A stretch of DNA of 64,000 nucleotides from Staphylococcus phage sv_nwjns2, in the sequence record PQ819472.1; one strand, written 5' to 3'. Positions 10,560-10,795 of the stretch are shown here, in pieces. Positions within the stretch are counted from its first letter, which is position 1. Each line of letters starts with the position of its first letter. Below the pieces are notes generated by a model. That model was not told where the DNA came from. It was given only the letters and a program-made list of their open reading frames with translations, and made no database searches. Position numbers and translations under genes: made by a program.

Positions 10560-10630
10560 GGGGGCAGGGGTAAAATGCCACTCAATGGGGGTGGGTCTAT
10601 ATACCCCTACCCTCTACCCAGGTACTTATT
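10560..10630. other. GC-rich island (GGGGCAGGGG...GGGGGTGGG...CCCCTACCCTCTACCC) containing CCCAGGTACTTA
   Basis: local GC far above the genome background; the 12-mer CCCAGGTACTTA at 10617-10628 matches what I recall as the inverted repeat bracketing K-like LTRs (uncertain). Confidence 0.35.
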
Positions 10631-10641
10631 TTTTGGGAAAA

Positions 10642-10669
10642 ATTATGAAAATAAATATTTAAAAGTCAA
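10642..10669 (-). promoter_or_regulatory. possible leftward promoter TTGACT, 16 nt, CATAAT
   Basis: reverse complement of AGTCAA (10664-10669) and ATTATG (10642-10647); would transcribe the GC-rich island toward the 10499-10525 hairpin. Confidence 0.25.
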
Positions 10670-10784
10670 CACCTAAAATATAGAAAGTAAGTCAACACCC
10701 TATATTAAAAGTCAACATTATAACCCCTCCCTGTAAGTCAACAATTTACAGTACAAATAGATAACCTCTAAATATAAAGTCAAC
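10662..10784. repeat. 5 direct repeats of AAGTCAACA (iteron-like)
   Basis: copies at 10662, 10688, 10708, 10734 and 10776; located between convergent terminators; the reverse complement contains TTGACT. Confidence 0.65.
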
Positions 10785-10795
10785 ATATCTAAAAT

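Follow-up and report, generated by a model that had tools for sequence, protein, structure and literature searches.

A direct-repeat array at a constant distance outside the long-terminal-repeat end of Staphylococcus phage sv_nwjns2: a candidate signal for packaging termination

How phages with long terminal repeats (LTRs) select the site of their terminating cut is, to our knowledge, not known. Kayviruses are the main therapeutic phages against Staphylococcus aureus, and the exact ends of their genomes matter for assembly, annotation, engineering and quality control. Here we consider one such end, the boundary of the left LTR of Staphylococcus phage sv_nwjns2 (sequence record PQ819472.1), in a stretch of 64,000 nucleotides that we refer to as the window. 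A sequence-only reading had picked out at this boundary an island of G/C-rich DNA carrying a possible LTR border, followed by five short direct repeats, or iterons. Comparison of genera shows that a short motif array lies at a constant distance outside the cut in several of them—a concrete and mutable candidate signal for the terminating cut. Whether the array does mark the termination cut of left-to-right packaging we judge, from comparisons of this kind, to be evenly balanced. The elements on which the argument turns are these:

Positions 1–10618, + strand: left long terminal repeat (L-LTR); base 1 is the physical left terminus, and the right limit is set by the ends of five annotated relatives.
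Positions 10558–10598, + strand: conserved G-tract box, ACGGGGGCAGGGGTAAAATGCCACTCAATGGGGGTGGGTCT, starting 61 nt before the LTR end and defined by its conservation across genera.
Positions 10617–10628, + strand: right copy of the 12-bp inverted repeat, CCCAGGTACTTA, placed by exact match, by the literature and by the ends of relatives; the cut falls between 10618 and 10619.
Positions 10663–10785, + strand: five AAGTCAACA(Y) iterons, with exact copies at 10663, 10689, 10709, 10735 and 10777.

Where does the repeat end? Between 10300 and 11000 the window is 97–99% identical to some 110 Staphylococcus Kayvirus genomes, S25-3 being the closest (99.1%). Its first base (GGAATTCTTTTACCTC..., GGAATTCTTTTACC..., GGAATTC) is the first base of the LTR according to the annotation of phage MSA6, and positions 1–60 match the start of the right LTR (R-LTR) of that phage, where ...TAAGTACCTG precedes it. 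A read pile-up study found the unique left terminus of IME-SA1 and IME-SA2 at this same sequence (GGAATTC...). It follows that the window covers the left 64 kb of a Kayvirus genome in virion orientation; the second copy of the LTR would lie beyond it. In all five relatives with an annotated LTR end (MSA6, Stab21, fRuSau02, fGPyoSau01 and Sa87), that end corresponds to position 10618; run-off sequencing, PhageTerm (fGPyoSau01) and coverage (Sa87) are among the bases for these annotations. The LTR hence spans 1–10618 and ends CC^CAGGTACTTA, two nucleotides inside CCCAGGTACTTA, and not at 10628 as had been proposed. At 10,618 bp it is longer than in most relatives (7.6–8.5 kb); those of Sa87 and Stab21 are 10,340 and 11,149 bp.

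The 12-mer itself had been named correctly: TAAGTACCTGGG and CCCAGGTACTTA are the 12-bp inverted repeats that part the LTRs from unique DNA in K-like phages (PMC6022877, PMC4111496, PMC7596081; citing Lobocka et al. 2012). The window contains a single exact match to CCCAGGTACTTA, at 10617–10628, the same place as in MSA6, Stab21 and fRuSau02. By symmetry, the LTR starts at TAAGTACCTG^GG, each 12-mer keeping two bases inside the repeat and ten outside. The partner, which the sequence-only reading would have sought 8–11 kb away, cannot be found there: the record opens partway through it, at its 11th base, so that only GG (window bases 1–2) is visible; in MSA6 the full partner is present upstream of the R-LTR. 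When MSA6, LSA2311 and Twort were compared, the two LTR junctions shared nothing past the 12-mer, and hence no longer terminal inverted repeat.

Around this cut, distances are held remarkably constant. From the core of the G-tract box, TACGGGGG, to the LTR end as annotated it is 61–62 nt in Kayvirus, Stab22, Silviavirus and Twort, and the core is invariant in Kayvirus, Silviavirus and Twort. In Sepunavirus BE25 and Sciuriunavirus ZCSS1 a G/C-run box lies 58–60 nt before the boundary, which in these two is a prediction, neither record carrying both LTRs. Just beyond the LTR end, and always in one orientation, arrays of AAGTCAACAY are found in Kayvirus, Silviavirus, Twort (Twortvirus), a relative from IMG/VR, and ZCSS1 (five copies); BE25 has a single copy. 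The distance from the LTR end to the first iteron is 44–46 nt in every lineage but ZCSS1 (64–65 nt, from the predicted cut), and that from the G box to the first iteron is 103–105 nt, with a length change of no more than 1 nt; neighbouring spacers have indels of at least 18 nt. Ungapped, the module—TACGGGGG, 58–62 nt, LTR end, 44–46 nt, AAGTCAACA—occurs in Kayvirus, Stab22, Silviavirus, Twort, the IMG/VR relative and, with its boundary predicted, Sepunavirus. In all three genera with measured ends the cut falls 2 nt 5' of GGWWC, and in those lineages it is flanked at set distances by the G/C box before it and the first iteron after it, as is characteristic of cos/pac-type sites.

The IMG/VR relative (IMGVR_UViG_2840904412_000002) is a mosaic. 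Its bofL gene is 91% identical to that of the window, but its G-box/boundary segment is Twort-like (GGGTACTATAGATTTGGCATATTTATA), which suggests recombination at or near the LTR junction. A scan of IMG/VR with the core of the G box gave two true matches only, one in a Kayvirus and one in a Silviavirus, the others being chance occurrences in GC-rich contigs; a scan for pairs of iterons was swamped by chance and by unrelated tandem arrays.

The array of the window is as the sequence-only reading described it, shifted by one base from the 10662–10784 given there. Its five copies lie inside 123 nt, at spacings of 26, 20, 26 and 42 nt, in DNA of 25% GC (10631–10800). The whole window holds nine copies of AAGTCAACA, all on the + strand, against 0.97 expected, and none of 100 shuffles reached nine. 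On the minus strand the motif reads RTGTTGACTT—that is, the sigma-A -35 hexamer with common flanks, which 9 of the 47 TTGACT sites in the window carry. Four copies fall outside the array, at 40953, 41319, 55536 and 56459. Those near 41 kb, which had been connected with the array (one of them at 40951), do exist, but they are ordinary -35 boxes of leftward promoters and not part of the iteron system: the copy at 40953 supplies the -35 box for p79, a promoter of phage 515A1 with support from RNA sequencing (RNA-seq), and that at 41319 belongs to a leftward TTGACT-16-TATAAT. The other two had been missed; the one at 56459 falls within a long coding frame.

Kayvirus-like phages have three to five copies of the iteron, the number being altered by deletions between repeats. 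At the junction, a usable -10, at 16–17 nt, accompanies the LTR-proximal copy alone, duplicated promoter units in Silviavirus excepted; of the five copies in ZCSS1 none has one. Most iterons, lacking a usable -10, are therefore not simply promoters. The copies beyond the first are not promoters, yet their -35-like core is exact, which points to protein binding. At the opposite junction, between unique DNA and the R-LTR, no iterons are found in Silviavirus or Twort, and MSA6 has one lone, inverted TTGACT, 360 nt off.

The array and the island stand in a spacer bounded by two terminators, as the sequence-only reading had it, and the homologous spacer of phage K is transcribed. Its features, with the genes on either side, are as follows:

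Positions 10303–10491, + strand: treU, the last gene of the LTR (list of open reading frames; treU annotation in MSA6 and fRuSau02).
Positions 10498–10523, both strands: bidirectional intrinsic terminator, found by a both-strand scan, at which treU (+ strand) and leftward transcripts (- strand) come to an end; it is t19 of 515A1.
Positions 10495–10635, - strand: predicted leftward, C-rich transcript of about 140 nt, drawn from the promoter and terminator positions, inside the region homologous to snc004 of phage K.
Positions 10669–10642, - strand: sigma-A promoter-like site, TTGACT-16-CATAAT, directed leftward into the LTR (consensus scan; predicted start about 10635).
Positions 10803–10819, - strand: terminator hairpin of bofL, found by scan; it is t20 of 515A1 and is annotated in fRuSau02 and 812.
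Positions 10824–11060, - strand (leftward): bofL, the first gene of the non-redundant part (list of open reading frames; BofL annotation in relatives; tblastn).

The leftward promoter-like site matches the consensus at 10 of 12 positions. It uses the iteron nearest the LTR, which comes first in + coordinates but last for a reader of the minus strand. At this iteron the -35/-10 pairing is conserved, with CATAAT in Kayvirus, TAATAT in Silviavirus, and TATAAA in Twort and the IMG/VR mosaic. The LTR-proximal iteron is thus probably a promoter element. The promoter had been proposed from the window alone, and its sequence and conservation make it plausible; it is absent, though, from the RNA-seq-based promoter lists of both 515A1 and phage K, and the 515A1 study lists no promoter between t19 and t20. 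In Silviavirus LSA2311 a 40-nt unit, comprising a leftward promoter (TTGACT-17-TAATAT) and an iteron, occurs twice, about 260 nt apart (884–923 and 1146–1186 of the segment), and Stau2 has one further copy. Twort has a strong rightward promoter-like site (TTGACA-17-TATAGT) directly after its fourth iteron (about 9340–9380 of the segment); it faces the 3' ends of leftward genes and could give rise to an antisense or non-coding transcript. An open reading frame that runs across the cut (10575–10676, 33 aa) was discarded, neither its frame nor its length being conserved in Silviavirus or Twort.

Leftward transcription does cross the cut site on the minus strand, and it stops at the bidirectional terminator. 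Stranded RNA-seq of phage K revealed a minus-strand RNA, snc004 (NC_005880.2 8370–8665), that occupies exactly the treU–bofL spacer and is about 296 nt long (Finstrlova et al. 2022, PMC9241854). To this the study assigns no promoter, though it lists one for snc003, and its supplement gives the hairpin at 8370 as the terminator of both gp021 (+) and gp022/bofL (-) (PMC9241854). Because that terminator is assigned to the leftward bofL unit, read-through from bofL is an equally possible source of snc004. Of the RNA of roughly 130 nt that had been predicted here, the strand and the terminating hairpin have thus been borne out; the published RNA is drawn at more than twice that length, and need not start within the array at all.

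The island on the other side of the cut is as conspicuous as it had first appeared. Between 10560 and 10618 the DNA is 57.6% GC, compared with 30.1% for the window as a whole, a level that 59-nt windows reach at only three places in the 64 kb. It contains runs of G and C at 10560 (GGGGG), 10567 (GGGG), 10587 (GGGGG) and 10604 (CCCC). The stretch 10550–10598 is 94% identical in Silviavirus (Remus, Romulus, Stau2 and LSA2311), with flanks that cannot be aligned. ACGGGGG occurs once in the 64 kb, and the G-tract box is also the sole G-quadruplex-type pattern there, one with a long loop; no canonical G-quadruplex motif is present. The other two stretches of 59 nt with at least 57.6% GC are at 17012–17080, around which ARAGORN finds no tRNA (16800–17300), and at 47821–47889, the terminase/intron region by homology to MSA6. 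One further feature lies within the island:

Positions 10562–10612, no strand assigned: inverted repeat GGGCAGGGGTA / TACCCCTACCC, found by repeat search, with 29 nt between the arms.

At 10610–10612 the window has CCC, where MSA6, Stab21, fRuSau02, K, 812 and Sa87 have TGG and Stab22 has CGG. In this lineage the CCC extends the inverted repeat GGGCAGGGGTA / TACCCCTACCC, and the change has the look of a 'quasi-palindrome correction', a templated mutation; S25-3, at 99.7% identity, would by inference share it.

The physical setting of the island is known from phage 812. Cryo-electron microscopy and sequencing showed that DNA left in emptied 812 capsids begins at position 1 of the LTR (Cienikova et al., Commun Biol 2026, PMC12886913), and therefore that packaging starts with the left end and ejection with the right. 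At the right end, the terminal 85 bp or so occupy the channel of neck and tail, where they touch the tape-measure protein and adopt a hybrid B/A form; they carry clustered G-tracts, with four terminal poly(G):poly(C) tracts that the authors find notable in an AT-rich genome; the left DNA end remains anchored to the portal (PMC12886913). Positions 10560–10618 are the same element as these terminal G-tracts. The window shows the copy in the left LTR, and the copy in the right LTR is the physical end of virion DNA. The constant distance between G box and DNA end would fit a constraint imposed by a conserved neck and tail channel.

What, then, might the iterons do? Since packaging runs from left to right, the terminating cut, at CC^CAGG, would follow directly on the passage of the G-tract box. 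We picture terminase making that cut right behind the box, with the AAGTCAACA iterons, 45 nt further on, remaining on the DNA that is left unpackaged. The iterons would form an array of like-oriented sites to which a sequence-specific protein binds, be it the recognition subunit of terminase or another factor of phage or host. The array would mark the right boundary of the LTR, or stall the motor there, such that the nuclease cuts at a fixed distance; by analogy, its role might be akin to that of the accessory sites that flank lambda cosN. The LTR-proximal iteron would double as the -35 of the leftward sigma-A promoter, and may add to the minus-strand RNA of the junction. Several observations favor this. 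All copies in the array have the same orientation, they are on the unpackaged side, and they are lacking at the other LTR junction in three genera. And because the spacer lies between two convergent terminators, there is no flanking gene for the array to regulate. Fixed geometry, single orientation, restriction to the right boundary and an inter-terminator position together support a signal for termination.

A bolder form of the same idea is that array, embedded leftward promoter and G-tract box together constitute the cis-acting packaging-termination site of the Twortvirinae, where a bound protein, or an RNA polymerase held at the promoter, would halt the motor with the nuclease set 45 bp upstream. 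This we regard as decidedly speculative, and more doubtful than not by a good measure. Leftward transcription into the repeat might also aid regeneration of the second LTR copy. If true, SPO1-like myoviruses with long terminal repeats would thereby have their first defined 'end-making' signal.

Other points speak against termination. We know of no protein that binds the iteron motif. The motif is a -35 hexamer with common flanks, and its four copies elsewhere in the window belong to ordinary -35 boxes or to coding sequence, so that the array could be made up of leftover promoter duplications. Sepunavirus has one copy only, and in Sciuriunavirus the first copy is 64–65 nt from the predicted cut rather than 45. 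The read pile-up study of the phages IME-SA1/2/3 reported a unique left terminus but 'random' right ends, which argues against a sharply site-specific cut, and the authors of the 812 study suggest a headful-like pressure signal as a possible trigger of termination (PMC12886913).

Other explanations start from the same observations. The spacer might be a small-RNA gene, in which the promoter of the LTR-proximal iteron drives a C-rich RNA of about 140 nt over the cut and the island to the bidirectional terminator, the RNA itself being the product and acting, for example, by pairing with G-rich ribosome-binding sites. A promoter-like site conserved in Kayvirus, Silviavirus, Twort and the IMG/VR mosaic, a terminator that works in both directions, and an RNA reported for exactly this spacer in phage K are what one would expect of such a gene, and the full predicted RNA folds better than its shuffles (z = -4.1). 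Folding had been proposed as a check, and the rest of its outcome is less encouraging: the island DNA folds no better than shuffles (z = -1.1), folds without the terminator give z = -2.1, -1.6, +0.6 and -1.9, single-sequence folds differ between genera, and RNAalifold, given seven sequences from across the genera, finds no shared structure (four weak pairs, -1.2 kcal/mol). An Rfam scan of 10000–11400 returned only sub-threshold matches, the best at 17–21 bits compared with gathering thresholds of 44–90. Neither RNA-seq study places a promoter here, even though one of them lists that of snc003, and the extent of snc004 over the whole spacer, with a terminator assigned to the bofL unit, suits read-through. 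Iterons 2–5 and the ZCSS1 array, with no -10, would be left unexplained. On balance we consider a dedicated small RNA unlikely, if not unreasonable. It is a good deal less likely still that the array is without function of its own, the debris of duplicated promoter modules in a freely varying spacer, with the first copy merely a promoter. Such an origin agrees with the commonplace nature of the motif (its flanks are those of nearly a fifth of the window's TTGACT sites), with the duplication of an entire 40-nt promoter unit in Silviavirus, and with a copy number that drifts between one and five through recombination between repeats. It sits poorly with a motif of 9–10 nt that is kept in sequence, orientation and position in five genera while the spacer is otherwise only about 55–78% identical, and with the loss of -10 parts where -35-like parts have stayed exact.

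Two further possibilities look to the entry and copying of the DNA instead. During ejection the left-LTR junction arrives late at the neck, with the AT-rich iterons ahead of the G/C island. Such an order, in the proposal of the 812 authors, sets off a transition from B to A form within the adaptor chamber and pauses the exit of DNA; here the left LTR would then stay behind in the capsid. In general terms their paper holds that pausing is favored where AT-rich DNA precedes a GC-rich tract, and it reports residual capsid DNA of discrete lengths that starts from LTR position 1 (PMC12886913); the junction has just this composition (25% GC in 10631–10800, 58% in 10560–10618). In phage T5, too, a conserved, untranslated, repeat-rich region over the inner LTR boundary has been linked to an injection stop (bioRxiv 10.1101/866236). 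Composition alone, however, would not require a specific, oriented motif of 9–10 nt, and it is hard to see the use of stopping once about 93% of the genome has entered. We think a pause of this kind improbable, and a replication or LTR-duplication element very improbable, the least probable of these accounts. In the latter, the iterons would be binding sites for an initiator, and an origin would be primed or activated from the leftward promoter, with leftward synthesis through the LTR regenerating its second copy, as in models for the terminal repeat of T7. Where a concatemer contains one LTR per genome, duplication has to occur at some stage. Direct repeats beside AT-rich DNA (five within 123 nt, where three or more are looked for) and a promoter aimed into the LTR from 17 nt outside its boundary would suit such an element. 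Yet 10400–10900 contains no DnaA-like box with one mismatch or fewer, and the neighbors treU and bofL encode small proteins of unknown function, with no initiator gene among them. Cumulative GC skew has its maximum near 10.6 kb, where transcription converges, the opposite of a typical origin, and a C-rich transcript is unfavorable to stable R-loops.

Repeats of other kinds occur elsewhere in these genomes. The opposite LTR junction carries repeated partial copies of the boundary site. In MSA6 the junction of unique DNA and R-LTR has a TACTACTAT microsatellite of about 250 nt, followed by CTAAGTACCTTTGTTATGTACTA in three copies and next by the true TAAGTACCTG^GG (1180–1497 of the segment); the same type of junction in LSA2311 has three ACCTGGGAATTTCTTTAC-like copies (about 420–900 of the segment), and the end of the ZCSS1 record has eight copies of ACACATAGACA. 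At its left end the LTR of the window begins with a non-coding leader of 480 nt (positions 1–480), ahead of the first promoter (TTGACA at about 424), with several short direct repeats. Further in, at 40994–41373, about 190 nt are duplicated in tandem (81-nt core, 95% identical) between the leftward promoter-like sites at 40953 and 41319; this duplication, the 41-kb repeat region of the sequence-only reading, lies upstream of the abundant long non-coding RNA and tRNA region described for Kayviruses.

Much of this is familiar ground. The LTR border was published in 2012, snc004 in 2022 and the terminal G-tracts in 2026, and the core of the locus is therefore already known. The AAGTCAACA array is not mentioned in the searchable literature, a search outside which Lobocka et al. 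2012 falls. Its geometry across genera is a modest, testable addition to what is mostly a rediscovery of known biology.

The junction may also be compared with other phage ends. In lambda cos (cosQ–cosN–cosB) a symmetric cut has, on one side, a sequence for the terminating cut and, on the other, repeated protein-binding sites. At the concatemer junction of T7, a promoter and polymerase pausing beside the terminal repeat take part in end maturation. The Kayvirus junction might be likened to both in arrangement, but it has no sequence similarity to either, and its terminal repeat is 10 kb, compared with 12 nt for the cohesive ends of lambda and 160 bp for T7. Repeat Region 3 of phage T5, at its injection stop, likewise consists of conserved, untranslated repeats over the inner boundary of a terminal repeat of about 10 kb (Davison, bioRxiv 10.1101/866236), and it too is better conserved than adjacent genes (bioRxiv 10.1101/866236). 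That region, however, is 1.2 kb long, with large inverted repeats and paired DnaA boxes, whereas the module here is about 230 bp, with no DnaA-like boxes; and a stop of the T5 type lies on the end that enters first, whereas the Kayvirus iteron junction, with ejection from the right end, enters late.

Closer to home, the terminal G-tracts of 812 and the island of the window are one element, of which the 812 work covers the virion end and its B/A conformation only (PMC12886913); the paper makes no mention of direct repeats or iterons, of a promoter, or of a constant distance between box and end across genera (PMC12886913). The snc004 RNA of phage K (PMC9241854) shares spacer, strand and end terminator with the transcript predicted here, and differs in its limits: 296 nt as published, compared with the promoter-proximal 130–140 nt expected from the sequence-only reading. 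As for the LTR borders of K-like and Twort-like phages, the match extends to their sequence, to their place after treU and before bofL, and to where the repeat ends. The window represents one case of these borders, and departs from them only in that its LTR is longer than in most relatives.

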